Part shown: positions 14,020 through 60,744 of the stretch, one piece after another
Layout of the letters: each line of letters begins with the position of its first letter
How positions within the stretch are numbered: the first letter of the stretch is position 1
Assembly: GCF_004010195.1 (NCBI RefSeq)
Contig: NC_057718.1
Coordinates: 48,605,859 to 48,669,858 of the forward strand
Reading direction: 5' to 3'
DNA from: Chiloscyllium plagiosum
Taxonomy: Eukaryota
Length of the DNA stretch: 64,000 nt
Notes under the pieces: model-generated
The model's database searches: none
What the model was told of the DNA's origin: nothing
The model's input: the letters and a program-made list of their open reading frames with translations, nothing else
Translations under genes and position numbers: made by a program

Positions 14020-14240
14020 GAAATTTGACACTTGCCATGCATGGAGGGACATGAAAATCCATCTGGATGAGATGGTGCTGTGGTAGGATGTCCTCTTCCC
14101 CCAGCACTGAAAGAGGAGGCCAAGATACCAGTCTATGTCAGCCTGGTCCAAGGTTGCCACTTGAGTCAGTGCAATCCCATCTGTCTGGAGGAACGCACAG
14201 CAGTGTGAGAAGAAAGTTGTTGTCACATTCTACTCATTGC
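14020..14240 (+). pseudogene. Myb/SANT-like (trihelix) domain remnant, PIF/Harbinger accessory gene
   Basis: One frame reads DMKIHLDEMVLW*DVLFPQH*KRRPRYQSMSAWSKVAT*VSAIPSVWRNAQQCEKKV, matching the W..VA..VS....R...QC.KK pattern; three stops. Confidence 0.65.
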
Positions 14241-15356: not shown

Positions 15357-15492
15357 AGGCAAAATACTGTAGAAGCTGGAAATCAGATACAAACACTGAG
15401 AATGCTGGAGAATCTCAGCAGGTCTGGCAGCATCTGTGGAAAGAGAAACAGATTTAATATCTTGAGTCCAGGATGAATCTTTTCAGAACTAT
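15357..15492 (-). mobile_element. Penelope-derived short element
   Basis: aaaatactgtagaagctggaaatc...tgctggagaatctcagcaggtctggcagcatctgtggaaagagaaacag. Confidence 0.7.
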
Positions 15493-16824: not shown

Positions 16825-17221
16825 CGGAGGCTGAGGGGTGACCTTATAGAGGTTTACAAAATTGTGAGGGGCATGGATAAGATAAGTAGACAAAGTCTAT
16901 TCCCTGGGATTGGGGAATCCAGAACTAGAGGGCATAGGTTAGGGTGAGAGGGGAAAGATATAAAAGAGACCTAAGGAGCAACATTTTCGCGCAGAGGATG
17001 GTAGGTGTATGGAATAAGCTGCCAGAGGATGTGGTGGAGGCTGGTACAATTGCAACATTTAAGAGGCATTTAGATGGGTATATGAATAGGAAGGGTTTGG
17101 AGGGATATGGGCTGTGTACTGGCAGGTGGGCCTAGATTGGGTTGGGATATCTGGTCGGCGTGGACAGGTTGGACCGAAGGATCTGTTTCCATGCTGTACA
17201 TCTCTATGACTCTATGACTCT
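16825..17221 (+). mobile_element. CR1 LINE 3' fragment
   Basis: RLRGDLIEVYKI...RGERYKRDLRSNIFAQRMVGVWNKLPEDVVEAG; (CTATGACT)n tail. Confidence 0.9.
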
Positions 17222-19994: not shown

Positions 19995-20405
19995 TGATTT
20001 GGTGTAAAGGAGTTTTATCAGGCTTCTGTCTATGTTGGAGTGTCTGAAACATGAGGAAAGGTTGGATAGTCTGGGATGATTTTCCTTGGAGCAGCAAAGG
20101 TTAAAAGGGGACGTATAGATGTGTATAAGATTATAATGGACATAGATAAGGTGGATAGGAAGGTAGATTTTTCAGTATTAGAAACGTCGATAATTAAGGG
20201 GCATATATTTATGATAAAAGGTATAAGATTAAGAGGAGAGTTGAGAAGAAATATTTTCACTCAGAGATTGAGAGTCTGGAACTCTATGCCTGAAAAGGTG
20301 GTTGAGTCAGAAACACTTGTACCATTTAAATAATATTTAGATATTCACATGCCTTGCCATAGCCTCTGGAGCTATGGGACAAAAGCTGGAAAATAGGATT
20401 AGTCA
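19995..20405 (+). mobile_element. Degenerate CR1 3' fragment
   Basis: ORF 20076-20333: GRIDVYKII..IDKVDR..RGELRRNIFTQR..WNSMPEKVVE. Confidence 0.8.
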
Positions 20406-20407
20406 AA

Positions 20408-20570
20408 ATTCAACAAAGAACTGTGGATGCTGAAAATCTGAAACAAAAATAGAAATTGCTGGAGAAACTCAGCAGATCTGGCAACATCTATGGAGAGAAA
20501 GCAGAGTTAATGTCCAGTGACCTTTCTTCAAACCTGCTGAGTTTCTCCAGCAATTTCTGTTTTTGTTTTA
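20408..20570. mobile_element. Penelope-derived fold-back element inserted in the CR1 tail
   Basis: aaacaaaaatagaaattgctggagaaactcagcag ... ctgctgagtttctccagcaatttctgtttttgttt inverted arms. Confidence 0.75.
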
Positions 20571-28400: not shown

Positions 28401-28728
28401 TCTCTTACAGTTCTTTTATAAAGTTAAAAATCACACAACTCTAGGTTATAGTCCAACAGGTTTAATTGGAAGCACTAGCTTTCGGAGCGCTGCTCCTTCT
28501 TTAGGTGGTTGTGGAGTATAAGATTGTAAGACATAGAATTTATAGCAAAGGTTTACAGTGTGATGTAACTGAAATTATATATTGAAAAAGACCTGGATTG
28601 TTTGTTAAGTCTCTCATCTTTTAGAATGACCACGTTGGTTTCAGTTCTTTCAGTAAATTGCAAAACCTTTTTAAAAGGTTACATTCTGAAGTGATCTTTA
28701 ACAATTGGTGTCTGTCAGCCCAGATCAT

Positions 28729-28958
28729 TAGATTAGATTACTTACAGTGTGGAAACAGGCCCTTCGGCCCAACAAGTCCACACCNNNNNNNNNNNNNNNN
28801 NNNNNNNNNNNNNNNNNNNNNNNNNNNNNNNNNNNNNNNNNNNNNNNNNNNNNNNNNACGTGCAAACTCCACACAGTCAGTCGCCTGAGGCGGGAATTGA
28901 ACCCGGGTCTCTGGCGCTGTGAGGCAGCAATGCTAACCACTGTGCCACCGTGCCGCCC
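28729..28958 (-). mobile_element. HE1-type tRNA-derived SINE containing the assembly gap
   Basis: Head gggcggcacggtggcacagtggttagcattgctgcctcacagcgccagagacccgggttcaattccc; CR1-like tail (tctaa)n; 5-bp TSD atcat at 28724 and 28959. Confidence 0.9.
28785..28857. other. Assembly gap (73 N)
   Basis: Run of n. Confidence 1.
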
Positions 28959-29589
28959 ATCATGTATTGAAGGTGTGAGTTCCCCTGTGTGTGATACTGC
29001 CTGTGCCACAATGTTTAGACTGATTCTAATCTAAAAAAATGCATTTACAGAATCTTACATGGATTCATACAGTTTTTGAGGGAAGTAAAATGCAATTCTG
29101 CAAGTACAAATTCACCCCACAAAGTTATATTTGTATGTTGTGCATGTGGGTGGGTGTGTGTGTGTGTGCATGGGGTGGGAGGTGGGGGTTGTGAGTGTCT
29201 GTGAGAGAGTGGGTGCATGTGTGAGTATAAATGGGGAAAAAGTCTGTGTGTGTGTGTGTGTGTGTAGGAATGTCTGTCAGTGTGTATCGTGCAGTGGGGT
29301 CACCTGTAGTGTGACATGAACCCAAGGTCCCGGTTGAGGCCATCTTTTATAGTTCTCTATCACTCACTCACACCAACAATGCCCACATCTCACTAGTGAA
29401 TAAAAATCAAACTTGTCTTGCACCTTTAATGACATACATTCTATTTTTAGTTCCTCTATGGCCTTTAGAATTTTCTCCTTTATTTTATATAGCAGATTAC
29501 AAGGCGAGGTGAGCATTTCTGGGTGTTTGGTTTTAATTACCAGAGGGGTTCAACCTCCACGTTGGAACAATTGGAACAGTTCTCTCTAT

Positions 29590-33822: not shown

Positions 33823-34329
33823 TGTTGGGGATGGGTTGAAATTATGCAGTGGGTGACTCATTCGTAGTCGTCCAATTTAGGGAAAATAAATTGTGCCATA
33901 CAAACCTTGAGTTATTGACTGTTTATTCGTGAGCTCACGGGAAGATTCAAGTCGACCTAATGGTCACAAGTCACTCCGATGAGATGCAGAGAGTTGCATG
34001 ATTATATAGGTTACAATCTTTAACAATTAGCAAACTGTTAATTGCAATATAATGAGTAGGCTAGGCACTTTGCCCAGTCACTAGCTTCAGTCACGTAGTA
34101 TCTGGACAGTCTTGATTAGTAGCTGATAAGCAAGAGTTAGTATATAATAGGTTCCCAGGCTGGAAAATAATTTATTTATCAGGCAATAGTACAGCTGCAA
34201 GGCAAACCACCTCACTGAGCCTGGGAAACTACGAGCTTAACAATCAGACACTAATATGAAATTCAAAATGATTTCCAGGCTTTTAATATGTGACAAAAAA
34301 GCTGCTTTAGATCTAACAAATCTCCCACA
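33823..34329 (-). mobile_element. Probable solo LTR (507 bp)
   Basis: Imperfect inverted termini TGTTGGGGAT...ATCTCCCACA; minus-strand TATATAA at ~34005 upstream of AATAAA at ~33925; CpG-richer than flanks; no clean TSD. Confidence 0.5.
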
Positions 34330-34340
34330 AAATTTAACAT

Positions 34341-34453
34341 ACTTTTTTAATCAACCTGTTCAGAGATGTTGCCGCACACCTCTGGAATAAGTGGGATTTG
34401 AACCTTGATCTCCTGCGTAGGAGCACTACCACTGTGCCACAAGATGGCCCTTT
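34341..34453 (-). mobile_element. Short tRNA-headed SINE-like element, copy 1
   Basis: AAAGGGCCATCTTGTGGCACAGTGGTAGTGCTCCTAC..GGTTCAAATCCCACTTATTCCAGAGGTGTGCGGCAACATCTCTGAACAGGTTGATTAAAAAA; A and B boxes; homologous to 50264 and 53133. Confidence 0.8.
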
Positions 34454-34464
34454 AGGCAGCTTGC

Positions 34465-34537
34465 TGTTTCTGCCCAGTTTTGAATTGCAGACCTTTCATG
34501 TGTCAGGTGAAAATACTAACCATTACACTACAGAATC
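34465..34537 (-). pseudogene. tRNA-Val pseudogene
   Basis: 73 nt, ungapped, ~55/73 identical by eye to vertebrate tRNA-Val(CAC) as recalled; many changes at CpG; anticodon now GAC; no CCA. Confidence 0.85.
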
Positions 34538-35269: not shown

Positions 35270-35855
35270 AGAAGCTTGAGAGCAACTGTTTGAAGATAAA
35301 TCCACATTTGATATGTGGGAGGCTTTTAAAGAAAAGTTGATTAGAGTGCAGGATATATAGGTAGCTGTGAAAATGAGGGATAAAAATGGCAAGATTAGGG
35401 AACCATGGATGACAGGTGAAATGATGAGACTAGATAAGAGGAAAAAGAAAGCATATGCAGGGTCTAGGCGACTGAAAACAGACGAAGCTTTGGAAGAATA
35501 TTGAGAAAGTAGGACCAATCTGAGGAATTTAGAGGGCTAAAAGAGTTCATGAAATAGCTTTAGCAAATAGGTTTAAGGAAAATCCCAAAGCTTTTTATTG
35601 TATGTAAGGAGCAAGAGGGTAACTAGAGAAAGGGTTAGCCCACTAAAGGACAAAGGAGGGAAGTTATGTGTGGAGTCAGAGAAAGTGGGTGAGATTCTCA
35701 ATTAGTACTTTGTGTCAGTATTGACCGAGGAGAGGGACATGACGAATGTTGAGGCTAGGGATAGCTATTTAATTGCTGTAGGTCAAGTTGGCATAGGGAG
35801 GGAGGAAGTGTTGGGTATTCTAAAAGGCATCAAGGAGGACAAGTACCCAGATCTA
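35270..35855 (+). mobile_element. CR1 ORF2 internal fragment (EN-RT linker)
   Basis: Decayed WEAFKEKLIRVQ..REPWMT..KENPKAFY..PLKDKGGKLCVES..; cut by the Penelope cluster. Confidence 0.8.
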
Positions 35856-35857
35856 TT

Positions 35858-36945
35858 AGGAGGAAGTGAGGATTGCAGATGCTTAGAGGTCAGAGTCGAG
35901 AATGTGGTGCTGGAAAAGGACAGCATGTCAGGCAGCATCCAAGGAGAGGAGAATCGATGTTTCAGGCATAAGCCCTTCATCCTGATGAAGGGTTTATGCC
36001 TGAAACGTCAATTTTCCTACTTCATTCCTGATGAAGGACTTATGCCCGAAACATCGTTTCTCCTGCTCATTCTTGAGGAAGGGCTTATGCCCGAAACATT
36101 GATTCTTCTGCCTGACCTGCTATTCTTTTCCAGACCACAATCTTGACTTTGATCTCCAACATCTACAGTCCTCACTTTCTCCTAGTTGATTTTAACCCTA
36201 CTGCGAAGCGTCTTCCAACGATGCTTACCTTGAAGACATTCTCCTCCTCTCTCTACAAGGATTCCAGTGAGTTTCTCCCTCACTGCACCCCCCAGGTCAT
36301 TTCCTCTGCACTGAAGCTCTTCAGCCACATCCTGAAGCACACTCGCTACCACAGCCACATTCCCTTCCTCAGTGACTGCCTACGGAACTGAAATCATTCC
36401 TGATGAAGGGTTTATGTCCGCAATATTGATTTTCCTGCTCCTCAGATGCTACCTGACCTGCTGTGCTTTTCCAGCACCATACTCTTGACTCTGATCTCCA
36501 GCATCTGCAGCCCTCACTTTCTCTGAGTTGATTTTAACCCTACTGTGAATCCTCTTCCAAGGATGCCTACCTTGAAGAAGTTATCCTCCTCTCTCTATGA
36601 GGATCTCAGTGAGTCTCTCTCTCTCTCTCTCACTCTCACTGCACCCTCCTCCCCCCACCCCCCCCAGGTCATCTCCTCTGCCCTGAAGCTCTTTAGCCAC
36701 GTCCTGAAGCAAGCTCACTACCACAGCCACATTCCCTTCCTCAGTGACTGCCTACGGAACTGAAATCATTCCTGATGAAGGGTTTATGTCCGCAATATTG
36801 ATTTTCCTGCTCCTCAGATGCTACCTGACCTGCTGTGCTTTTCCAGCACCATACTCTTGACTCTGATCTCCAGCATCTGCAGCCCTCACTTTCTCTGAGT
36901 TGATTTTAACCCTACTGTGAATCCTCTTCCAAGGATGCCTACCTT
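35858..36945 (+). mobile_element. Penelope pLTR cluster: inverted pLTR, tandem hammerhead-like cores, tandem pLTR plus ORF-start units
   Basis: Inverted arm 35858-35980; CTGATGA..GAAAC cores at 35982 and 36028, mutated cores at 36073, 36400 and 36772; peptide SSSLYKD..QVISSALKLFSH.LK..YHSHIPFLSDCLRN occurs twice. Confidence 0.8.
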
Positions 36946-37045
36946 GGCCTCTCGAAAATCCTCAGTTCATCCAACTCCAGTTCCAGTTCCCTAACTCGTT
37001 CGGTGAGGATCAGGATCTGACTGCATTTCCTGCAGAAGGTGTTGG
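36946..37045 (-). mobile_element. CR1 ORF1 fragment (Cys motif plus leucine zipper)
   Basis: FCRKCSQILILTERVRELELELDELRI. Confidence 0.7.
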
Positions 37046-39734: not shown

Positions 39735-40062
39735 TTGTTGTTTGTTTCTTTCTTGTTAGACCTAACTATTGTGCGTCATTTGCATGGCAAAAATGTAACT
39801 TGACACTTTTTGACTTAAGCTTGAATATTTTCAGGTCTTGCTGCATTTCCTCATGGACTGCTATAGTATCTGAGGAGTTGTGAATAGTGTGGAACACTGC
39901 AATCGTCAGTGAACATCCCCACTTCTGATCTTTGAATGGAGGGAAGATCATTGATGAAGCTGCTAAAAATGGTTGGTCCTAAGAAACTACCCTGAGGAAC
40001 TCCTACAGAGATGTCCTGGAGCTGGGATGACTGACCTCTAGCAACCACAACCATCTTTTTAT
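39735..40062 (-). mobile_element. Family-B LINE RT fragment
   Basis: ORF 39851-40054 QLQDISVGVPQGSFLGPTIFSSFINDLPSIQRSEVGMFTDDC. Confidence 0.85.
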
Positions 40063-41262
40063 GTGTCCTGAGGTTGGCGGGTCATGAGGCGGAAGATGAG
40101 GCATTCTTCCTCCAGGTGTCGGGTGGTTATGGAGTGGCGATGGAGGAGGCCCAGGCCCTGAATGTCCTTGGTGGAGTGGGAGGGGAAGTTGAAGTGTTTG
40201 GATACGGTGGGGTGGAACTGGTTGGTATGGGTGTCCCAGAGATGGTCTCTGAAGCGCTCTGCCAGTAGGTGTCCTGTCTTCCCAATGTAGAGGAGACTGC
40301 ATTGGGAGCAACGGATATAGTAAATGACATGTGTGGAGGTGCAGATGAAGCTTTGATGGACTTGGAAGGCTTCTTCGGGCCTTGGACGGAGGTGAGGGGG
40401 AGGTGTAGGCGCAGATTTTGCAATTCCTGTGGTGGCAGGGGAAGGTGCCAGGAGGGGATGGTGTGTTGGTGGAGGGTTTGGACCTGACGAGAGAACAGCC
40501 TTTATGGAAAGCGGATGGGGGGGTGGAGAGAAATATATCTCTGGTGGTGGGGTCTGTTTGTAGGTGGCGGAAATGGCAGAGGATGATACAATGTATACGG
40601 AGATTGGTGGGGTGGAAGATGAGGACCAGGGGCATTCTGTCCTTGTTGTGATTGGAGAGGTGGTGTTCGAGGGCGGAGGTGCGGGAAGTGGATGAGCTGC
40701 TCTGGAAGGCATCATCAACCATGTGGGAGGAGAAGTTGTGATCTTTTAAGAAGGAGGCCATCAGGTGTGTTCTGTGGTGGAATTGGTCCTCCTAGGAGCA
40801 GATGCGGCAGAGGAATTGGGAATAAGGGATAGCGTTTTTACAGGAGGCAGGGTGGGAGGAGGTGTTATCCAGGTAGCTGTGGGAGTCAGTGGGTTTGTAG
40901 AAAATGTCAGTGTTGAGTCGGTTATCGTTGATGAAGATGGAGGGGTCCAGGAAAGGGAGGGAGGTGTCTGAGATGGTCCAGGTGAATTTAAGGTCCGGGT
41001 GGAATGTGTTGGTGAAGTTGATGAACTGTTCAACCTCCTCATGGGAGCACGAAGTGGCGCTGATGCAGTCATCAAGGTAGCGGAGGAAAAGATAGGGAAT
41101 GGTGCCAATGTAACTACGGAAGATGGACTGTTCCACGTAGCCGGCAAAATGACAGGCATAGCTGGGCCCCATGCGGCGTGTCCTGGCTGCCCCTTTCGTC
41201 TGGAGAAAGTGGGAGGATTCAAAGGAGAAATGAATGAGAGTGAGGACCACTTCAGCCAAATG
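40063..41262 (-). mobile_element. Penelope-like element: RT C-half plus GIY-YIG endonuclease (frameshifted)
   Basis: HFLQTKG..MGPSYACHF..FLRYLDDC..KFTWTISDTSLPFLD..YKPTDSHSYL..IPYSQFL; CTSTHVIYYIRCSQCSLLYIGKTGHLLAERFRDH..LEEECLIFRL. Confidence 0.95.
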
Positions 41263-41830
41263 AATAAGTTTTGTGAGGCACGATTACCCTTCACAAAACC
41301 GTGTTGACTATCCCTAAGCATGTTATTCCTTTCTAGATGATTATAAATCCTATCTCTTATAACCCTTTCCAACACTTTACCCACAACCAAAGTAAGGCTC
41401 ACTGGCCTATAATTTCCAGGGTTGTCTCTACTCCCCTTCTTGAACAAGGGAACAACATTTGTTATCCTCCAGCCTTCTGGCACTATTCTTATAGACAATG
41501 ATGGCATAAATATCAAAGCCAAAGGCTCGACAGTCTCTTCCTTGGCTTCCCAGAGAATCCTAGGATAAATCCCATCCGGCCCAGGGGACATCTATTTTTA
41601 CACTTTCCAGAATTGCTAACATCTCCTCCTTATGCACCTCAATCCTGTCTCATCTAATAGCCTGTATCTCTGTATTCTCCTCGACCACGTTGTTGTTTTC
41701 TAGTGGGAATACTGAAATAAGTATTCATTTAGTTCTTTCCCTATCTCCTCTGACTCCACACACAACATCCCACTACTATGCTTGATTGGCCCTAATCTTA
41801 CTCTAGTCATTCTTTTATTCGTGATATACC
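41263..41830 (-). mobile_element. CR1 ORF2 fragment (start of RT)
   Basis: SPGPDGIYPRILWE..WRITNVVPLFKKGSRDNPGNYRPVSLT..SQHGFVKG. Confidence 0.92.
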
Positions 41831-42244
41831 TTAGTCTATTTTAGTTAACTTTGTCTTCATACCTTTGTAATTGATTTTATTACAGTTTCCAGCTAGTTTC
41901 AGACCTAGGTTTCTCACATTCAAACTATGTTACGAACACTAATTAAAGAGATCACTGTTGTCATAATCTTGTCTTTATTGAATACTTGCCAGGTATAAAA
42001 ATAGCCTGTCCCCTCGGTAGGGTCAAAATAAACTGTCTGGAATGCTCTGTATAAACCCATTATCATGGTGCCCTAATCAAATATGATTTGTTCAATCTGG
42101 ATCAAGGTTAAAACCGTCTCTGATCATTACATTACCTTTATTACAAACACGCATTATTTCTTGGCTGATACTCTGTCTTCCAGACTAGCTATGGTTAGGC
42201 CTTGTTATGATATCATTCAGTGTGGAAGGGTCAAAATTCTAAGA

Positions 42245-42448
42245 GGAGAAAGTGAGGTCTGCAGGTGCTGGAGATCAAAGTTGAAACTTTATTGCTGGAA
42301 CAGCACAGCAGGTCAGGCAGCATCCAGGGAACAGGAGATTCGACGTTTCGGGCACAGGCCGAAGAAGGGCCTGTGCCCGAAACGTCGAATCTCCTGTTCC
42401 CTGGATGCTGCCTGACCTGCTGTGCTGTTCCAGCAATAAAGTTTCAAC
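42245..42448. mobile_element. Penelope-derived perfect fold-back insertion
   Basis: 82-bp perfect inverted arms 42279-42360 and 42368-42449, 7-nt loop; 14-bp TSD tcaaaattctaaga at 42231 and 42449. Confidence 0.92.
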
Positions 42449-43788
42449 TCAAAATTCTAAGAACTGCTTCCCTAATGGCATTGTGGGTCTACCTACGCCA
42501 GATTGACAGTATACCAACCACTTCAAGGATAATGTAGAAGAGGCAATAAAAACTATCCTAGCCAGACACATCCACATTTCGTGAATAAGTGAAAACTAGC
42601 AGCTAGAGTAAAGATGGAGTGGAATGATGGAGTGGAGTGGCTGAATTTCCCCAGCTGTCTGGAGTTCGGTTTGGAGACAGAGATGTTAGGGAAGCAATAC
42701 AATTCTTCATTGAGCCAGCTTCCTGAGGCTGTACCATATCTTGTGAATTACTCTTGTCAAAGGTATCTTTCATTTACCTATTTCTTAGCTCAATCCAAAC
42801 TGTTTTGACATCTTATCTTCCAAGCCAAGATAACTTTCCATTACAATATTGATCTCATACTAAATTAGTAGAATTAACCAACCTCTGGTTCAATTTCTAT
42901 TATGTAGATGAAACGGTAAACACTTAATTAAAGATGAGAAGGATGTTTCAGGATCGCATACATATTGCTTTGGGTATTGTAATCAGTGATTCCCCTCAAG
43001 GCAATCTTTCATTTAGATATATGTGGATTAATGATTGTGCTGCAAAGTTATGAATATGTATTTTATTTGCAGCAAAACCAAATTGTCCACTAATTAAATA
43101 AGCAGTAGAAGTTTGACCTGGTTCTGGTTGACTTGAATCAACAACAGGAAATAGTTTCTAATTCAAGAAGCATTCCCTATGAGGCTCAGGTTAAATATGG
43201 AGGATGTAAATGGCACTGGCTAGTGTAGTAGAAATTATCCTGAGACTTACATTGAGGTTGAATGGTCAGAACACTAAGGAATTGACTTGTACTGCTGTAG
43301 ATATGGAGTATAATCTCACTGCTTTTTCCATAAATAAAGGATCTGAACATTTACAAATAGCCGTTCATGTTTGCAAAAACATAATAAAAGGCTTTATTTT
43401 GCTGCTGCACTTTTCATCTCATCATTCCTGAAGTATTAACTCATGCCAATTCACCACTTTAAGAGTATGGTTGCTGTACGTTTCAATGCACTTTTCAATT
43501 GTTCACTGATCATGTTCAAGCCAAATCAGTGAGATTGAGTCACCATGTAACAGAAGATGGGTATCATTGAAAAGTGCAAACCTATCCTAATCAGGCTTTC
43601 ACATAATACCATTTTTCCAGGTGGGGCACTGACTAGCAATCAGAAATGGGAACCTTGACTGAGATTTTTCTGCTCCCTAGGTCAGAGATACAGAAGACAA
43701 TTATAGCACCCAGCTGAGATCAACAACTGAGGTGCAGTCTGTACAACCAACTAAAATCTTCCTTGTCCAAACAGCTCATTTTCATATT

Positions 43789-44066
43789 TTAGATTAGATT
43801 AGATTCCCAACAGTGTGGAAACAAGCTCTTCAGCCCAACCAGATCCATTTCCCTCTGACTAATGCACCTAACACTATGGTCAATTTAGCATGGCCAATTC
43901 ACCTGACCTGCACATCTTTGGACTGTGGGAAAAAACCAGAGCACCCAGAGGAAACCCACACAGACACAGGGAGAATGTGCAAACTCCACATAGACAGTTG
44001 CCTGAGGCTGCAATTGAACCTGGTGCTGTGAGGCAGCAGTGCTAACCAATGAGCCACCATGCCAAA
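43789..44066 (-). mobile_element. HE1-type SINE
   Basis: tRNA-like head ggcatggtggctcattggttagcactgctgcctcacagc; core gatgtgcaggtcaggtgaattggccatgctaaattg; (tctaa)n tail. Confidence 0.88.
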
Positions 44067-44539
44067 AGCACAATATTTATGGAATCATCAGAAAAGTAAT
44101 GATCCATTCTGTGCCAAATACAAAACACTGCAGCCCAGCCATTATAGACTAATGATGTGAACTTAAAACTCAGAATGCACTGATTACAGAATAATGGTGT
44201 CATTGCATAAGTTAATAATCAGTGAAGGATCTTTCTGACTTGTGGTACTTGTAAGTGTTTCATGTCTGAAAACTGTAGACATGCCTTTTTATAAAATGTT
44301 GAAGTAACTAGTGTAAAGGTGGAGTGGCATGATGTAGGCTGAATTTCCCTAGCTGTCTGGGATTGGGTTTGGAGACAGGGGTGCTAGGGAAGCAATACAA
44401 TTCTTCATTGAGCCAGTTTCCTGAGGTTGTGCCATGTTTTGTAATTTTCCTTGGGTGGGTGGGGATGGCAACATGTTATCTAAGGCAGAAACAGGAAAAA
44501 TGTTTTCTCACAGGTGGCCATGAGCATTTGGAACTTTCT

Positions 44540-49525: not shown

Positions 49526-49673
49526 AAATGACAGTTTTTCTTCATATCAACTCTGACTGGGAGGTTCCAGTTTCTGAGCAACTGGATTAGCTATTGGTGA
49601 AGGAAGAAGAGAAAGTAAGAATTGCACACTTGTAGTTAAAAAAAAATTCTACTTTGTATTAGAACTTAGAATT

Positions 49674-49997
49674 CCTACAGTGTGGAAACCAGTCCTTTGG
49701 CCCAGCAAGTCCACACTGACCTTCCGAAGAGTAACCCACCCTGACCCATTCCATAATTTCTCTACGTTTCCCCTGACTAATGCACCTAACATTTTGGGCA
49801 ATTTAGCATGGCCAATCCACCTAACCTGCACATCTTTTGGATTGTGGGAGGAAACCATAGCACCTGGAGGAAACCTGCATAGACACAAGGAGGATATGCA
49901 ACCTCCACACAGACAATTGCCCGAGGCTGGAATCAAACCTGAGTCTCTGGTGCTGTGAGGCTGCAGTGCTAACCACTGAGCCATCATGCCGCCCCCT
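49674..49997 (-). mobile_element. HE1-type SINE
   Basis: Head gggcggcatgatggctcagtggttagcactgcagcctcacagc; central gatgtgcaggttaggtggattggccatgctaaattg; tail tttccacactgtagg. Confidence 0.9.
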
Positions 49998-50263
49998 GCA
50001 AACTTGTGAGTCAAAAACAAAAAATTCTATTCTATATTAGAACTTAGAATTAGGTATTCTGGTCTTCATAAATTGGAAATAATCACACTTCATACAGTAT
50101 TTGGCAGGGTTAGCTGTGTTTAATACAGCTTGTCATGCTGTCTGGTATTAAGGCTGTCTAAGATCAGTGTTTCACATCAGATGCCTCTCCAGTATAGTCA
50201 TAAATATCACTTCTGGAACATTTACACAATTGGTTCCTGGCTAATTAATTCCTAATATTGAGC

Positions 50264-50375
50264 ACAGTGCTTTTGTGTGCAAAGGTAGTGTCCCTATCTC
50301 TCAGCCAGGAGGCCTAGGTTCAAGTCCCACCTGCTCTAGAGATGTGTAAGAGTATGTCTTAATTTAAAATATCTA
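50264..50375 (+). mobile_element. Short tRNA-headed SINE-like element, copy 2
   Basis: ggtagtgtccctatctctcagccaggaggcctaggttcaagtcccacctgctctagagatgtgtaa...aaaatatcta; homologous to copies 1 and 3. Confidence 0.75.
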
Positions 50376-50799
50376 CAACATACACCATCCTCATCACCAA
50401 TCCCTTAAAGGTCTCTAAAGCCACCTGGTCAGTGATGCACCTTCTCATGATAATTGACACTGTTTACTCCATGACGGTTAAAACATGCAGACATGTTTAT
50501 CTTCTCCACTTTTGTTCTTCATGCCATCTGTCATGTAAGGAAAAAAAGACGACTGTGTTAGTGCGTGGCCTGAAATAGTTTTGAATTATGTGGCTGTCAT
50601 TGGTGAATAGCCACCAGTTTGTTCAAACTGGTAGTGTTTGTGAGACTGATAACAGTTTAAATGTGAGGTAAACTGTATGAATTGAAGGGTTGATGACTAT
50701 TTGATAGAGATTGTTGGTAGGTGAGTGTGGGGATTGCAGTGAATTGAGCAGTGGTTAACATTATATGCACAATTTGAACTCACTCACTTTGATGACTTG

Positions 50800-50990
50800 A
50801 GTCAGTTTGTTACATTTATTCTGCATGCCATCCATCTTCCTGGATCTACACCTTTCCTACTGCTACTTGAGCATTTATCAATATGCCTCTTGTTCCACTG
50901 AGAATATAAGATAATTCTCCATCTCTTCACCCACTCCAACAATACCTTCAGTGTGTTATTGGAAAATCTCAGTGCACGTTGTATCACATA
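50800..50990 (-). pseudogene. Myb/SANT-like N-terminal remnant (Harbinger accessory gene)
   Basis: QRALRFSNNTLKVLLEWVKRWRIILYSQ matches the R..RFS...L..L...V..R...L pattern. Confidence 0.55.
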
Positions 50991-51589
50991 TTCAACAAAT
51001 CTTCATCTTTGACAATGCAAATCAATTTCACAAAGTACTCATATCTCTTCTTACAGTCAAAATACACTATGATGGCAGGTTGCAGGCTGTCTTTAAGTAA
51101 TGCTAGTCATTTGGAGGTAAGTAATGTCAGAAGCGAGTTTGCAGGATGGGTCATAGACAGCATGATTGACAGGAAGGACAGAGGGGATAGCTTTAAGTGT
51201 CATGCCCCCTTTCCTGATATTAAGTCCCTCGATCAGGCATTGAAAGACTTTGATTGATGTCCCCCATTCTGCCTGGCCCCTCATTTGGGAATTGAAAAGC
51301 TGACTGCACGGTTGTAGCTGTTGTGCATGCCATAGGCAATAACATCATCTGCAGTAAGGCTAACACCAGTGGCAGTGGCCATGGACTGAGCCCCTTAAGT
51401 AGTTCTTAAGTTATGACCCACTAACCTCAAATTGTGGCAGGACATGAATGGTCACCACTGTTCCTCCTGCCCATAACAATTCTTGTGAAGGCAGGAAAGT
51501 GGGTATGGGAGAGGATGCTCTTTGGGTATACCACCATTATACCCTTCCTGCCTTCCAGCTTGTCATCAGCAGAGGATTCCACCTAGGGT

Positions 51590-52525
51590 TGTAATGAGAT
51601 CTGGAGCTGAGAAGTTCTAGTGGACTTAAACTGCACATTACTGATTGGTTATTGTTGAGTCGTGGTTAAGAGTAAACTGATGGGTTGCAAGGGAGATTAA
51701 GAGGGATGGGGAGGGGAGAATAATTTGCACTCCTTTTTGTAAACATGACATATAGAGACTAGTTTTCATATTGTTGGGTAAATGCCAGCCTTGTGACTGT
51801 CTTAGCTAAGGACAATAGTCGTTCTTCAACACAGGTCTTCAGTATTCCTGCCTGAATATTGGCCAATGCTGCAGTAACACCCCATTTTCAGAATTGTCTG
51901 ACTCTTTTCTTTACCCCTCAATTAACCAGGGTTAGCTAGTTTGGCCAGGAATGATAGGAGAAATTTGTTGGACGTATACGCTGAATACAATTCTGCATTT
52001 GTTGATGGCAAAGTTTTTGCTTTGTTTTGAGCAGCTAGATCTATTCTTCATTTATATCTTTGACTATGATGGTAATACCACATAACAATATGGAGTGAAA
52101 ATGTGACTGAGATTGCATGGTGATCACTTTTGCAAATACTGTCACGGACTAACAAATCCTGGGTAAATTAGTGAAGATGAAGCAAAGGGGGTTATTTTCT
52201 TCTGTTGGTTCTTTTATTACCAATTCCATGGCCAGTCTGGCAATGGAATTCATCAGTAAATGACCAATTGCATCAATATGGTATTATATTCTTACTGCTG
52301 ATCATTGAAGTTTCTTGTCCTGCCATCTTGCTAAACTTAGTGTTTCTTCAAATTGAGTTTAACGTGGAAAAGTATTAACTTATGAGTTGAAGGAGGACAA
52401 TAATCAGGAGGCTTTCTATCCCTCTTTTTGATTTAATGTCATGAAGCTACTCTAGGGTTGTGTGTTTGCATGAGCAATTATTGAGAGCAAGATACATTCT
52501 CCCCTGATTGTATATCACTGTGTCC
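51590..52525 (-). mobile_element. Very decayed family-B LINE fragment
   Basis: gttgtaatgagatctggagctgag..agagtaaactgatggg..gagcagctagatct.., colinear with 16030-17930. Confidence 0.5.
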
Positions 52526-52529
52526 CTAT

Positions 52530-52805
52530 AGGTCAGAACAGGATCAATGATGAGGAGGCACAGATTTAAGGTAAGGGGCAGAAGGCTTAGAGGAGGTGCG
52601 AGGAAAGACTTTTTCACCTAGATGCTGAAACTCACGTAACATTCAAGTATTTAGATTACACTTGCAACTCCAAGACAAACAAGTCTGTAGGCCAAGTGCT
52701 GGAAAATGGGACTAGAATAGTTAAGTGGTTGTTTTTGACCAGTCTGGATGCAATGGGCTGAAGGGCCTTTTTCTGTGCTGAACATCTCTTTGACTCTATG
52801 ACACT
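52530..52805 (+). mobile_element. CR1 3' end fragment
   Basis: ggcacagatttaaggtaaggggcagaaggcttagaggaggtgcgaggaaagactttttcacc...tgactctatgac. Confidence 0.75.
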
Positions 52806-53132
52806 AAGGATCCTATTGTTTTTGCAGTGCCAACTCAGTGGTGCGACATGACTAGTGGAAGTTATATTGAGGTAGACTGCAGATGATGTCATGTATTTCT
52901 AGCGGGCTCATTTTAAACTGTGAAACCTTGCTATGGGTGACAGATGCCTCAGCAGTGAGGGGAGTAGCTGTGTGGCAGTATTGGGAAGAAAGCATAGGCA
53001 TCCTGAGAGTGGACAGCAGCATTGTGCTCCATGGTGTCACTGCCTCTTTCCAAGGATAGTACCTGAGCAATCTGAGCAATGTGTTGGAGGACAGATTGCT
53101 GGACTGCTGTGACAGTTTGCAATCGTCATTGA

Positions 53133-53253
53133 GATATTTTCTAACGACCCTGTTACAGAGATGTTATGATACACTTCTGGAGCAGTTGGGACCTGAACTT
53201 AGATCTCCTGACTCAGAGAAAGTGACACTACCATTGCACCATAGGGTCCCTTT
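53133..53253 (-). mobile_element. Short tRNA-headed SINE-like element, copy 3
   Basis: AAAGGGACCCTATGGTGCAATGGTAGTGTCACTTTCTCTGAGTCAGGAGATCTAAGTTCAGGTCCCAACTGCTCCAGAAGTGTATCATAACATCTCTGTAACAGGGTCGTTAGAAAATATC. Confidence 0.8.
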
Positions 53254-53344
53254 ATGGAACAGTTCACAAATTTGCATGTCATCCTTGCACAGAGGCCATG
53301 CAAACCTTCCCAGTATCATTACAATTTTAGTATAGGTGCTGCTG
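53253..53344 (-). pseudogene. U6 snRNA pseudogene (U6 nt ~11-102)
   Basis: CAGCAGCACCTATACTAAAATTGTAATGATACTGGGAAGGTTTGCATGGCCTCTGTGCAAGGATGACATGCAAATTTGTGAACTGTTCCATA; ungapped, ~78/92 identical to recalled vertebrate U6; ACAGAGA box mutated to ACTGGGA. Confidence 0.93.
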
Positions 53345-53679
53345 GGGTCTTCTCTGACACTGGCATCCACAGCTAGGATGGAAGAAATTTACACTGATAT
53401 GATAATAACATAAATTTTATGCAGATACGATAAAGTTATGAATGTTAAGAATGTGCTGTAATTGGTAGAAACAGGTGAGTGATGGAGGTGAGGTCCATTG
53501 ATCAAAATATTGTGATAATGGATTGGAACCCTCAAATACAATTGGCATGTTTAATTCTTCAAAGACAAAATGATGGCAAGTATAAATTGAGTAGTTGTTT
53601 AGCAAAACATTTGATGTGGAATTATACAATATAACATCTAAAATATCAAAGAAACTTCAAACAGATTGAATGATGATTT

Positions 53680-54370
53680 CTTGTGACTACAAAGATATTG
53701 AAGGATTGGCAACCTCTGCTCAACAGCAAATTGCCAACTGTGGATTATATCCCAAACTTCAGAGACATTTTGTGCTTTTTCCTTTGAAAATACACAATCC
53801 CAACCTTTTCAACTCTACTGGAGTGTATTAGTGGGACTGAATGCATTCATATACCAAACTGGGTTTGACTGTCAATATCCTATGCCAATCACAGTCAAAG
53901 AATCATCCTCTAGTTCCTCTGCATTTCAGGTAAAGACTGTGACTCTTATGCTGAACTGACATTTTTTTTTATTTCTTTCACCTTTAGACTCACTTCTTAT
54001 TTCTAACCTTTGTGTATGCCTGTTGTATTGTTCATTCTTCATGCATTTAGTAATGAATAAAACCACTTTTTGTTCACTCAAGAAAGCCTGGTTTCATTGG
54101 CTACTTTGAAATATAAATATCCTTGGTTCTGGAGAAAGGAATGCTCATGGGAAGGATCCATTTTAAAATGAACCTATTTGTGACCAACCAAGGTAGCAGG
54201 TGAATAATGAAGGAGACCTTGTTAACATTTGGGGTATCCTGAGTAGAATCATAATGAATTGAGAAACTTTGCTTAAGGTCCATGCATAACAAATGAAAGA
54301 TACCAGTTGTTTGGTTGGTGGGATATGACATTTGAAGATACATTCACTGCCCTTTTCCCTGGCATAACTC
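53680..54370 (+). mobile_element. Probable degenerate LTR
   Basis: AATAAA at 54056 followed by accactttttgttcactcaagaaagcctgg; ends ..ccctggcataac. Confidence 0.35.
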
Positions 54371-54941
54371 ATTTTTACACTGCAGTTAGAAACCATCACT
54401 ATTCAACATAAACTTCCCCTATAATAAACATAGGCTGGCTTTAAGTTACTTAGGTTGAACTTGCTGTAGATTCACATCACTTTGCTTTCCTGCCTAGACT
54501 TGTCACCACTCAACTGTACATTTTGGCCAATTTCTGCATTCATTTAAATGAGCAAATAGTAGAAATGTACATGCTGTCTATATTGGAAGCACTGGATGTT
54601 TGATTATGCATCACATCCTGTTATTGGGAGTTGGTTAATTCTGTAGCCCATGTATTCAAATTGCTGGATTTCACCTTTCAGCCATTTTGTTTGGCATCGA
54701 TTCATTCAATGCATGCTCCCTTGTTTTTTCTTCAAAACACAATGCTACGTATTTCTGGACTAAACTGTATCTTCCAATTGTGTGACCTCACTGCTCATCT
54801 GCCAAGGTCACTCTTAAATATTTTGCAGTTTCTTTCTTATAATAAGCAAATCATCTTAATTTTGTGCAATCAGTAACTTTAGCAGAAAATGAAAATGGAT
54901 GAATAGTTGAAAAAGAGAGTAATTAAGCAGGTTGAGGATAA

Positions 54942-55155
54942 AGGGGGTCAGTTAACTCAGTTGGTTGGACGGCTTGCTTATGATGCTAACAGCATGGGTT
55001 CAAGGCCCATTGTGGCTCAGGTTAGCATAAAGGAATCTGTCTCAAACTCACCTTCTTCTCACCTAAGGCATAGTGACTTGTAGGTTAAACTCACCATCAG
55101 TTTTTTCTCATGGATGAGAGAGAAGCTCTCTGGGACTCTGGCAACTTTACCTTTG
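54942..55155 (+). mobile_element. tRNA-derived SINE (third family)
   Basis: A box taactcagttgg, B box gggttcaaggccc, tail ggcaactttaccttt. Confidence 0.65.
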
Positions 55156-55189
55156 GTTTTTAGAAAAAAATGGGACAAAATATTTCAGT

Positions 55190-56010
55190 GTCATAGAGCT
55201 AAACAGCGTGGAAACTGACCTTTCTTTCCAAATTGTCCATGCTGAGCAAGTACCTTAAATTTATCTATCCCATTTAGACAATAGACAATAGACAATAGGT
55301 GCAGGAGTAGGCCATTCTACCCTTCGAGTTTCTCCTCATCTCTGTCCTAAATGGTCTACCCCATATTTTTAAGCTGTGTCCTCTGGTTTGACACTCACCC
55401 ATCAGCTGAAACATGTTTCCTGCCTCCAGAGTGTCCAATCCTTTAATAATCTTAAATGTCTCAATCAGATCCCCTCACAGTCTTCTAAACTCAAGGGTAT
55501 ACAAGCCCAGTCGCTCCAGTCTTTCAACTGGAGCGTAGTCCTGCCATTCCAGGAATTGACCTCGTGAACTGACGCTGCATTCCCTCAATAGCCAGAATGT
55601 CTTTCCTCAAATTTGGAGACCAGAACTGCACACAGTACTCCAGGTGTGGTCTCACCAGGGCCCTGTACAGCTGCAGAAGAACCTCTTTGCTTCTATTTGG
55701 CAGCATTTGGCCCATATCCCTCTAACCTCTCCCTATCCATGTGCCCATCCAGATGCCTTTTAAGTGCTGCAATTGTATCCACCTCCACCAACTCTTCTGT
55801 CAGCTTATTCCATACATGCACCACCCTCTGCGTGAAAAAGTTGTTCCTTAAATCCCTGTTAAATCTCGCCCCTCTCACTTTAAGCCTACACCCTCTCATT
55901 TTGAACTCCCCTACCCTGAAAAAAAAATCTTGCCTATTCACCTGTCCATGTCCCTCATGATTTTATAAATCTCTATAACACCACCCCTCAGCCTCTGACA
56001 TTCCAGGGAA
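55190..56010 (-). mobile_element. CR1 3' fragment (outer element)
   Basis: ORF 55693-55941 RGARFNRDLRNNFFTQRVVHVWNKL; tail at 55190-55275. Confidence 0.88.
55276..55694 (-). mobile_element. CR1 fragment nested in CR1
   Basis: SKEVLLQLYRALVRPHLEYCVQFWSP; (CTATTGT)n tail; 4-bp TSD attt at 55272 and 55695. Confidence 0.88.
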
Positions 56011-56565: not shown

Positions 56566-59321
56566 CTTGGGAAAGGAAAATAAAAAGATATTAGTGGTAA
56601 TTTGCATACTTTTGGTATGCTTCCAGGGGCACAGGTAACTCTTTGATCATTTGTGTTTGTTTCAGGTCTTCAGCATCCACAGTTTTTTTTGTTTTATATG
56701 AGTGTTTGCCTTGAGTTTGACAATGATGTATATGTGGTCAAATAACCAGCCAGCCATCACTATCCAGCTTTACCCAGGAATACAAAGCATTTTACCATTT
56801 ATTTATGGCAGTTTGCAAAGGATTGGATATCCCTGCACCTTTTTATTTTGTCTTGCCCTGCATTTTATCTTTTTCAAAGCAATGCTTTTGTTTGTACATA
56901 TTTGTGAATCTTATAGTCTATTTAATTATATGCTCTTTCATATTTGGTCTGAATGTTTTAAATTTTTTATTAATTATGTGTTTATTAAGTCAATCTCTCA
57001 GTCTCCTCTCGGGCTGCTTTTGACTGTGATTTCATTTGCACCCCCCCTCTCCCCCAGCACCCCGCTTCCCACATACACATAAACATTCACTCATTACTTG
57101 ACATAGTCCATCTAATCAGGTGGTAAATGATTGACAGGCCTGATAGCGCCATATCTGAACATAACATATGTCTCAATCACGACAGCAACAAGCCCACAAT
57201 GCTTTATACTTTGTCTGTGCAGTAGAAGGCTGGCAACCCTTCCTCACTCTCTGTGAGGCCCTTTGACAGCAGAAACAACTTTTGAAAAAGGCCTCCAGAT
57301 GTAAGTGAGAAAAAGCTGCTAACATTCCAGGAACAAATTTCAACAGCCTGCACTTCATCCCTGTCACAAATGATTGTTCATTCATGCTGTATCCCAGCTA
57401 TCTCCATTCTCAAGTGATGCCTCATGCGTTGAGGTAAAGGAGATAGACATCTAACACATTGAGTGGAGGAATTTTCTAAGTAGGGTACTGTGCCATTGTG
57501 ATACACCATCATTTAGGCCATGATGACCTGCTAATGAAGTCGGTTTTATGTTCTCACTCCTTCCAGCTGTCCATTATAATAACAGACATTTCTATTATTG
57601 ATGGTGAGTGTTCAGTGTTGAATGACTGAAAATCTACAATTATATGGTCTTTGCAGGCTGTGATAACCCTATTTTAAATGCAATAAAATTTGGTTACAAA
57701 AACTCAAAGCTTTGACTTTGCTTTCATTATTTGGTTTGTTTAAAGTAAGGAGGCAACTGACACTTTTATTTTGCTTCTGTTTCATTTCCCTGATTCTCAT
57801 ACCTCACCAATTGTCCTGATTAATTGGTGTTTGTTTTTCTATTAAAATTGAAAATAACAAACTTCAAAGAGTCAAAGTAAGCAAAGAATAGTGTTTGTTG
57901 CTGGCTATCTTCCAGGTCTTGATGCTCTTTTTAGCAGAATTACTGCCAACAACCTGGCTCCTGGCCCAGGTCTCTGCCATTTTTATGTGAATAACAACAA
58001 AAAAATGTGCAAATGACAATTTGAAAGACCAAAGGAATTAGCTTGGCTTCAAATTATTTTATAAACATCTGTGTCTCCAGCAAAGACAAGGTTAAACATT
58101 GAAATGGAAAAAGGTAGGGCTTATTTTCAGATGAGAAGTTTTGAGCAACAGCCAAAAGATATTTGAGACTTTTTAAAATAGCTGAGTGCACTAATGTTAT
58201 TTATGCTTCCATTTCTTTCAATGCCTGTGGCTTTTAACAACAGCAATAAGCAGGCCAAGAAGAAGGAGGAGTGAATTATCACTTTTAGTTGATACTTAAA
58301 TGAAATATAACTGTATTTTCTGTTTGATATGAACAAAACGTTCCACAACTCCCTGATTAAACTTATTAGCCTTCTCCTAAAAGTCAGTTTGATTTATTAA
58401 AAGAATGATTTGAAAATGCTTTCTTGGGTTATAGAGATTTCATAATCCCTTACACGGGTCTGGTAAATCTCCACTTACTTCGATTTCAAACCAATTTATG
58501 TCTTTGAGAGTGACCCAGGGAATTAATGAGGTTCGTGCTGTCAGTTCTACAAATGCAAGGTCAAGTAAATCATTCTCTTTCCAACTAACTCTGGTTTACG
58601 CTACAGTTCTGACTCCAAGCTAAATGATAACAAACTCGCAGATGCCTTTGAAATATGGCATCACTGACACTCTCTGTCCATCTGCTGAGGCATATTTTAA
58701 GCTCTGCTTCTCTCCATGTTGTAAACTTTGCTTTAATGGAGTCAGTAATTACTGATAAATGGAGTTTTGATGAAGTCATTGTACTGTAGGTTCAGTTTGT
58801 GCTGATCTGTGTGCTTTGAATGCTTCCCTCCCAAGCTCTAATTTAAAAAGACAGTATGCAGGACAGGCAGTAGGCCAAAGTTGCTGACTAATGTTGAACT
58901 TACACCATGTCTCATGTAATTGCACTTTAACACAGATTTGCATACTTTCCTGGCTAAAAGGCTCGACTTTGCACTGTTGAATACAAGGGGGCCCAGTTAG
59001 TAATGCATACAGAAAACCAGCTCTGCCAACTGAGCCAATCAAAATTTGGCCAGTTCTTGTTCATTGGGTCAGATCAAACTGGTAAATAGTGCTCAATGTG
59101 GTTGATAATATAAATTGAAATGATAAGTTCTTATCTTAAATAGGGGAAGCAGTATTAAGCATATAATTGCCCATTCTGGAGAAGCAATTAGCCCTTGTTG
59201 ATTTAGTCCATACATTAAATTACCAACCTTATGGGTAAATGATTTCTGATGTATAATATATTTGCAATTGAGGTCTCATCATAATGTTTGTACAGAAAAC
59301 AAAGAACCAACACTATCTTCT

Positions 59322-59425: not shown

Positions 59426-60304
59426 GTAACTTTTGCACTGTGAATGATGCAATATGCCACAGACCAAGCAAGCATCTTTAAATACAGCATTGTGCTTCAG
59501 AGACCTCATGGGTTCTGTGTTGCATCTCCTCTCAATGTAGGTAAACAGCACCCTGTCAAAATTCAGGCTAAAAAGTATTTCAGATTATAATACTGGTAAC
59601 GAATGAATAACACAAAAAACGCCATGTTGTAATTATTCAGAAATAACAAATTGTGATTCAGTGGAGAAGGAGTTAAAATAGCTCCTGCAGAACACAGTTC
59701 TTATACAGTTCCATAATTCAAAAGATTTTGAATTAACAATCTTTTATATTTTTTCTACCATGATTTTGTACATGATTGAAGGGAATTTCCTACTGACAGT
59801 CCAATTTTCTATATAAACTATTGAAACTGAATTCAGGATGTCAATTAAAGATGACTATCAAGGCTTTCAAGGTAAAGAAGCCTTTCATATCACTGACGTG
59901 TTTTCAACATGGTTTGACAACGGGTTTGAAGGTGGGGGCATATGTAAAGTCCAACAGGTAGCCTTTCCACTGCCTGCCCACTCAGCCCCCGCTTGACTAA
60001 AATTAGCTACCACATAAGGGTTGCATCCTTATGTGTGGCACTACTTTACATGCAGTGGTGGGGGGAGGGTCATGCCATATAAAAAGCCTGGCAACTTTAG
60101 CTGCGTGAGCTGGCATCAGGGACTGTATTGGTGGGCTGTTTAATCTAACAGAGGCACTTACACAAAGGGAAAACAGCAAGAGATTTTGGGGAGCTCACTC
60201 ATGCTCACAACAGCTTGAGTGAAGGATTCAAAACATACAGATCATCACAAACTGTGAATCTATAGTGCATCAAACTCCAATTATCAGTAATCACATTTTA
60301 CTTA

Positions 60305-60428
60305 TTCTGAAGAAGAGACACAGGACTAGAAACTGCTTTCTCTCCACAAATGCTGCCAGACCTGCTGAGTTTCTCCGGTAATGTCTGTTTTTGTTTCAGA
60401 TTTTCAGCTCTGCAGTTCTTTGTTTTAT
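60305..60428 (+). mobile_element. Penelope-derived short element
   Basis: ttctgaagaagagacacaggactagaaac..tgctgccagacctgctgagtttctcc..tgtttttgtttcagatttt. Confidence 0.7.
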
Positions 60429-60744
60429 TATTACTTTTTGCTGGTTGTGCATGGGTACAAAGGCACCCCATGAAATAAGTATAAAAGGGTATACAGACAA
60501 ATAAGTGTAAAGGGGTACACTTTTGTCTGGACGTCACATGGTAATAAAATATTGTTGAAGAGAAAAGTCTTAGATAGGGAAAATTTAAAAGCTGAAATGG
60601 AGTACATTTGATTTTCCTTATGTTCATTTAAATAAACTAAATTACTTACTATCTACATATCTATGTATAAATACTTGTCAAAAATGGAAATCAGTTCTAA
60701 TATCCATAGATGATAGTTGGAGTTTGTGGCTTAGAAGGATCATT

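Follow-up and report, generated by a model that had tools for sequence, protein, structure and literature searches.

A near-full-length copy of U6 snRNA runs without a spacer into the head of a full-length, 119-bp tRNA-headed SINE in the genome of the shark Chiloscyllium plagiosum. We lean, with moderate confidence, towards the view that this pair is a one-off template-switch chimera laid down in a single retrotransposition event. We favor a chimera because the U6 match leads to a direct junction, because two of the three copies of this SINE in the window (the whole 64-kb stretch analyzed here) have no U6, and because no exact target-site duplication (TSD) surrounds the SINE of the U6-headed copy alone. 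An earlier note on this DNA had described the same minus-strand join between U6 and an element of about 120 bp, and that anatomy is borne out below. It had also called the locus a chimera, which we believe is the best reading, but its suggestion of an amplifying U6-headed family is disfavored by the two copies that do without U6. The note overlooked the published U6/SINE chimeras of platypus, Anolis and opossum, as well as a second copy of the SINE that is preceded by a tRNA.

The U6 identification comes from an Rfam scan of the window, which gave 8 matches in all. The U6 model (RF00026) matches the minus strand at 53248-53360 with 61.7 bits (E 3.9e-13, gathering score 44), and this is the sole match in 64 kb at gathering level. 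The 7 others fall below gathering, and 6 of them (miRNA, lncRNA and scaRNA) are so far below it that we take them as chance. The copy tracks the Rfam consensus as far as the A before the U-run, and then two extra As and GGG stand in the U-run's place. The oligo-U end had been described as replaced by AAA; the U-run is indeed gone, but the first of those As is U6's own. At the other end about the first 10 nt are absent, and the 5' stem aligns only across a 13-nt local gap. A count by eye over 54 core positions gives 9 departures from the consensus, of which 3 are at CpG. The 91 nt of the copy hold no CG dinucleotide. No TATA- or PSE-like stretch was seen by eye upstream at the expected positions of these elements. 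This is a processed, decayed pseudogene. Its trimmed 5' end, the lack of a U-run both before and after the SINE, and the lack of any visible promoter mean that a retroelement had no transcribed U6 gene to target here.

Table 1. Features of the U6-headed SINE and of the two other SINE copies, in window coordinates.
Feature	Position	Strand	Basis and remarks
U6 snRNA retro-pseudogene	53254..53344	-	Rfam RF00026; 5' end ~10 nt short, 3' U-run absent, CpG-free
Junction of three As	53251..53253	-	first A fits U6; other two not U6
SINE copy 1, 119 bp, tRNA-headed, full length	53132..53250	-	sequence, blastn, profile search
Copy 1 A box (internal Pol III promoter)	53231..53241	-	read from sequence by the box consensus
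Copy 1 B box, worn	53189..53199	-	sequence, alignment; better preserved in copies 2 and 3
Copy 1 3' stem-loop	53156..53179	-	sequence, shuffling test
tRNA-Val-like pseudogene before copy 2, full length, CpG-decayed	34465..34537	-	Rfam tRNA, 26.1 bits
14-nt spacer ending TAAA	34451..34464	-	sequence; tRNA 3' trailer-like, or mutated CCA plus flank
SINE copy 2, full length with 7 nt deleted internally	34337..34450	-	blastn, alignment, profile
TAAA in register with 5' flank (possible 4-nt TSD round SINE alone), then T4 (possible Pol III terminator)	34329..34336	-	in-register test
SINE copy 3: head decayed, without a small-RNA neighbor, candidate 3-nt TSD	50267..50374	+	blastn, profile; 5' boundary by eye

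The sequence and the Rfam alignment agree that the U6 3' end and the SINE head are joined directly and in the same orientation. The SINE begins here at GGG, a start identical to that of copy 2. The two As that do not belong to U6 may come from a SINE leader, from oligo-A on the U6 RNA, from untemplated bases or from a decayed TSD. At its far end copy 1 has neither a poly(A) nor a microsatellite tail. The longest T run is 2 in the 40 nt after the SINE and 2 in the 15 nt before it, and no A-tail remnant was found downstream, so there is no interrupted U6 end beyond the SINE. The A box, B box, hairpin and terminal letters attributed to the element are all present in it, with the B box worn in this copy. 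The 3' stem-loop is likely a recognition element for a partner LINE; by shuffling, that of copy 1 is not significant (z -0.99) and that of copy 2 modestly so (z -2.0, 6 of 200 shuffles). Because it lacks a U6 promoter and its B box is worn, we predict that the joined unit is inert.

Three copies of the 119-bp SINE lie in the window; blastn finds the two others at E 8e-14 and 3e-7. A profile built from the three finds no fourth copy below E 0.07 in the 64 kb. Pairwise identity is 83/113 columns for copies 1 and 2, 76/107 for copies 1 and 3 and 66/100 for the remaining pair, and the branch lengths for copies 1, 2 and 3 are about 11, 16 and 18%. Ahead of the SINE head lies U6 in copy 1, a tRNA 14 nt away in copy 2 and nothing in copy 3. 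All of these counts come from a single window and its three copies, of which the U6-headed one was selected. The tRNA origin of the SINE is suggested by the layout of its boxes and by two weak matches. Rfam gives a weak tRNA match inside copy 2 (14.7 bits, E 2.9), and the SINE head weakly resembles the head of a longer tRNA-headed SINE family of the window (E 0.07, similarity in the head only). A further stretch at 14072-14133 (+) has an insignificant match to the head profile (E 0.13) and is possibly a very old related head.

The 119-bp SINE is distinct from that longer family, which we take to be HE1/V-SINE-like. Three copies of the longer SINE lie at 28700-28966, 43770-44074 and 49645-50004, all on the minus strand; the first includes the window's 73-N gap, and the tail of the family is weakly similar to a CR1-like end at 17125-17199. 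No LINE sharing the tail of the 119-bp SINE was found in the 64-kb window. Shark SINE families include the HE1 V-SINE, the SacSINE1 Deu-SINE and the CmiSINE CORE-SINE (PMC5499810, PMC3747384), which are marked by a conserved central domain and a tail derived from a LINE, and our element is not placeable among the families given in the available portions of those papers. Neither a U6-headed SINE family nor a prior account of this shark element appeared among the matches listed in a literature search that had most subscription journals and Repbase outside it. Motifs from the SINE body had no matches in metagenome contigs, viral contigs or prokaryote genomes; an abundant repeat of the window also had none in viral contigs, so the blank is uninformative there. 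The tRNA motif likewise had no matches in viral contigs. For the interval 50000-56000, 24 sequencing runs are listed, of which 20 contain part of it and 8, from 2 studies of one organism, contain at least half of its words; there is no RNA dataset among them.

Just below copy 1, at 52780-53131 (-), is a 93-codon open frame that by eye looks like a LINE ORF2 remnant. The search for its homologues gave 3 protein matches, all to unrelated repeat-rich proteins, 0 Pfam families and 0 of 44 candidates. Frames at 40003-41283 (-) are presumably a Penelope-like RT and a GIY-YIG-like domain, and beside them at 40761-41591 is what we take to be a CR1-like ORF2 piece. A short inverted-repeat element is locally duplicated in tandem at 36067-36946 (~85% identical), with others at 35852-36018 and 42227-42461. 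Another dispersed short repeat with internal inverted arms occurs at 11-142, 15360-15461, 20401-20568, 58745-58837 and 60212-60435. Two different readings of the 119-bp element itself were rejected: an antisense reading frame across it has no protein match, and a Helitron-like reading of its hairpin end does not fit the element's ends.

The tRNA-like sequence ahead of copy 2 scores below the Rfam gathering score of 29, with E 0.39 window-wide and E 0.0021 within 351 bp. Its 5' half is identical by eye at 26 of 34 positions to the tRNA-Val-CAC printed in the available part of PMC11035144; it has GAC at the anticodon position and a CG count of 0. ARAGORN at its default settings finds no tRNAs in the window, and relaxed settings give 24, mostly noise, with 34465-34537 not among them window-wide. 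The tRNA identity therefore rests on the sub-gathering Rfam match and the comparison by eye. The T4 starts 4 nt past the body of the SINE (p 0.04 for a T4 within 8 nt). If the SINE is taken out of copy 2, what is left is a tRNA, a 14-nt trailer and T4, which is gene-like. We consider the choice between capture of a pre-tRNA and insertion of the SINE into the trailer of a tRNA gene to be near even, the capture reading being weakened by the 4-nt repeat round the SINE alone and by the T4.

A free search for TSDs gave nothing above chance in all five flank pairs. For the whole U6-SINE unit no framing TSD was found: the best of 16 possible starts gave no more than 2 exact nt, in a family whose copies are 11-18% diverged. 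We also used an in-register test, in which body ends are fixed at the last pentamer common to the copies. For the SINE of copy 1 alone it gives 0 nt exact; two of the three As agree with the 3' flank and one does not (p 0.27), which leaves room for a decayed short TSD round that SINE alone. For copy 2 it gives the 4-nt repeat (p 0.009 with a fixed boundary, 0.04 with 2-nt slack), and for copy 3, whose 5' boundary was set by eye, a 3-nt repeat (p 0.03 fixed, 0.11 with slack). The statistics for copies 2 and 3 are post hoc, come from AT-rich DNA and are mutually non-independent. The earlier note had counted a TSD round the SINE alone against a chimera; the U6-headed copy has no exact one, and the two others have repeats of 4 and 3 nt there.

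The template-switch chimera would arise as follows. A LINE reverse transcriptase, which we infer to come from a stringent L2/CR1-type partner, would prime at the stem-loop end of the SINE and copy the SINE RNA through to its first base. There it may make an end-to-end switch to the 3' terminus of a U6 RNA that had already lost its Us. Copying would halt about 10 nt before the U6 5' end, and both sequences would be inserted as one dead unit. The U6 head and the SINE body have decayed similarly: the divergence of the head (9/54, with 3 at CpG) set against about 11% for the body is compatible with one age. Several observations speak against this account. No TSD frames the unit, so its one-step origin is offered as a proposal only, and the three As leave room for a decayed short TSD round the SINE alone. 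Copy 2 has the look of an independent insertion in the trailer of a tRNA, and the four letters ahead of its SINE head are identical to those in the U6-headed copy. The tail of a partner LINE was also not found in the window.

Chimeras of this kind have been described in other vertebrates, and our comparisons refer to the available portions of the papers cited. Doucet et al. (2015, PMC4476161) report U6 chimeras with L2, RTE, Mon-1, AnolisSINE2 and RTESINE1, mostly with a 5'-truncated U6 and a short TSD or none. Those between U6 and a SINE are U6/Mon-1 in platypus, U6/AnolisSINE2 in Anolis and U6/RTESINE1 in opossum. Almost all the platypus U6-L2 chimeras have a 5'-truncated U6, and a TSD of 1-9 bp is found in 72.5% of 40 chimeras; in Anolis there are 6 U6/AnolisSINE2 among 43 U6 copies. 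The same paper suggests that template switching in human is perhaps limited to U6 and U6atac among the snRNAs. Our locus is like theirs in having a 5'-truncated U6 directly upstream of a SINE with a short TSD or none. It has three of the four features of their group IV: a U6 in the same orientation 5' of a non-LTR element, a partner that exists as an independent repeat, and a promoterless processed copy. The fourth is a single TSD round both parts, where our locus shows at most 2 exact nt. The differences are the shark genome (the word "shark" is absent from the available text of PMC4476161) and the unnamed 119-bp SINE. It also has a full-length SINE and a lost U-run, for which that text and its supplement files 2 and 3, as available, hold no junction detail for comparison.

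The crocodilian SINEU-1/2/3 elements of Kojima (2015, PMC4494074) are similar in being short retroelements with an snRNA at their 5' end and in the recurrent gain of heads by template switching; the addition of small-RNA heads to SINEs is already known. Kojima's argument that SINEU is a family is that no headless partner was found. SINEU has U1 or U2 heads, is multi-copy and lacks a headless partner, whereas here the head is U6, it occurs once in the window and headless copies exist. Our locus is not SINEU. The human U6/L1 chimeras attributed to the RNA ligase RtcB (Moldovan et al. 2019, PMC6789731) share with it a sense U6 joined to a retroelement; they have a full-length U6 with 5-7 T, a 5'-truncated L1 and TSDs of 6-19 bp, none of which three traits is found at our locus. 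Copy 2 has its own parallels. The tRNA/LINE-1 chimeras (bioRxiv 10.1101/2025.02.02.635956, PMC11838501) also place a tRNA beside a retroelement 5' end, but they are mostly antisense tRNA halves with TSDs of 9-19 bp, and copy 2 has a full-length sense tRNA and a spacer. The Dictyostelium elements TRE3 and Skipper-2 (PMC5911963) sit just downstream of tRNA genes, with TRE3 sharing the gene's orientation. They are autonomous amoeba elements whose targeting is shown genome-wide, and copy 2 is one locus of a vertebrate SINE.

An alternative is that of two separate insertions, which we regard as unlikely. In it the SINE inserts alone with a TSD of 3-4 nt and favors Pol III genes, or copies of them, at their 3' edge. 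It could do so by tethering to a Pol III factor, as TRE3 does, or by reusing an A-rich nick site left by an earlier retrocopy; these two routes share between them the same low probability. The in-register repeat of copy 2, its T4 four nt past the body and the tRNA-trailer-T4 arrangement left on removal of the SINE all argue for it, and so does the 3-nt repeat of copy 3 (p 0.03-0.11). In its favor, too, the U6 and the tRNA, the two Pol III small RNAs of the window with Rfam support, both abut heads of the 119-bp SINE. However, a TRE3-like solo insertion downstream of an intact Pol III gene fits copy 2 and does not fit the U6 copy, which is trimmed, without a U-run and promoterless. There is also no exact TSD round the U6-headed SINE, the statistics that favor the idea are the post hoc ones of copies 2 and 3, and among the organisms covered in the available part of PMC5911963 downstream tRNA targeting is placed only in dictyostelids.

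An amplified U6-headed subfamily resembling SINEU, for example one descended from a master SINE that follows a U6 gene and is transcribed by read-through from that gene's promoter, would explain why the SINE body is full length behind its U6 head, and a single instance in 64 kb is easier to meet if many exist. Crocodilian SINEU has gained snRNA heads repeatedly (PMC4494074). We nevertheless think it quite improbable: one of three window copies has U6, the headless copies fail Kojima's argument from the lack of a headless partner, and U6 has no internal promoter (both from the available part of PMC4494074). Ligation of U6 to the SINE RNA by RtcB before retrotransposition, as in human U6/L1, agrees with the direct joint and the shared orientation. 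Pol III transcripts carry a 5'-triphosphate, and the SINE at our locus starts at its natural head, which is presumably such an end, rather than being 5'-truncated. RtcB is known to join U6 to non-L1 RNAs as well, but it needs a partner with a 5'-OH, a triphosphate partner gave 0/26 full-length products, and its products retain 4-8 T (PMC6789731, available part), compared with a longest T run of 2 before our SINE. We therefore give this route very little credence.

Least credible in our opinion is chance, that is, a randomly placed SINE that happened to insert where a U6 pseudogene ends. It must be admitted that the window was picked for this very adjacency. The adjacency of the tRNA and copy 2 was not selected, however. 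Under random placement it has p 2.3e-4, a figure that rises to as much as 2.2e-3 when all 7 Rfam matches other than U6 are allowed to count. Hand arithmetic with only the 1011 TAAA sites as targets gives p ~0.002. None of the three copies of the longer SINE family has a small-RNA head, a contrast with the 119-bp SINE that is not significant (Fisher p 0.4).

Taken as a single locus, the template-switch chimera extends U6/SINE chimeras to a shark genome, which is of modest value. A broader idea, which we put forward tentatively and hold to be rather doubtful, is that the 119-bp SINE has a systematic link to Pol III units at their 3' ends, by RNA capture or by targeting of trailers. In the capture version, which shares that doubtful standing with trailer targeting, U6, pre-tRNA and other Pol III RNAs would be joined to the full-length SINE head in at least 1% of insertions. 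The basis for it is 2 of 3 copies in 64 kb, or 1 of 2 that were unselected (95% lower bound 1.3%). No vertebrate SINE with such a link is described among the matches listed, in a search that had most subscription journals outside it. Template switching has been proposed as the way in which SINEs obtain new Pol III heads, but its cases can rarely be counted. If this SINE does so often, or if it targets Pol III trailers, that route to head gain would become testable from a single table of 5' flanks. If the link is real, the genome of this shark would preserve an extensive natural archive of head acquisition by SINEs.
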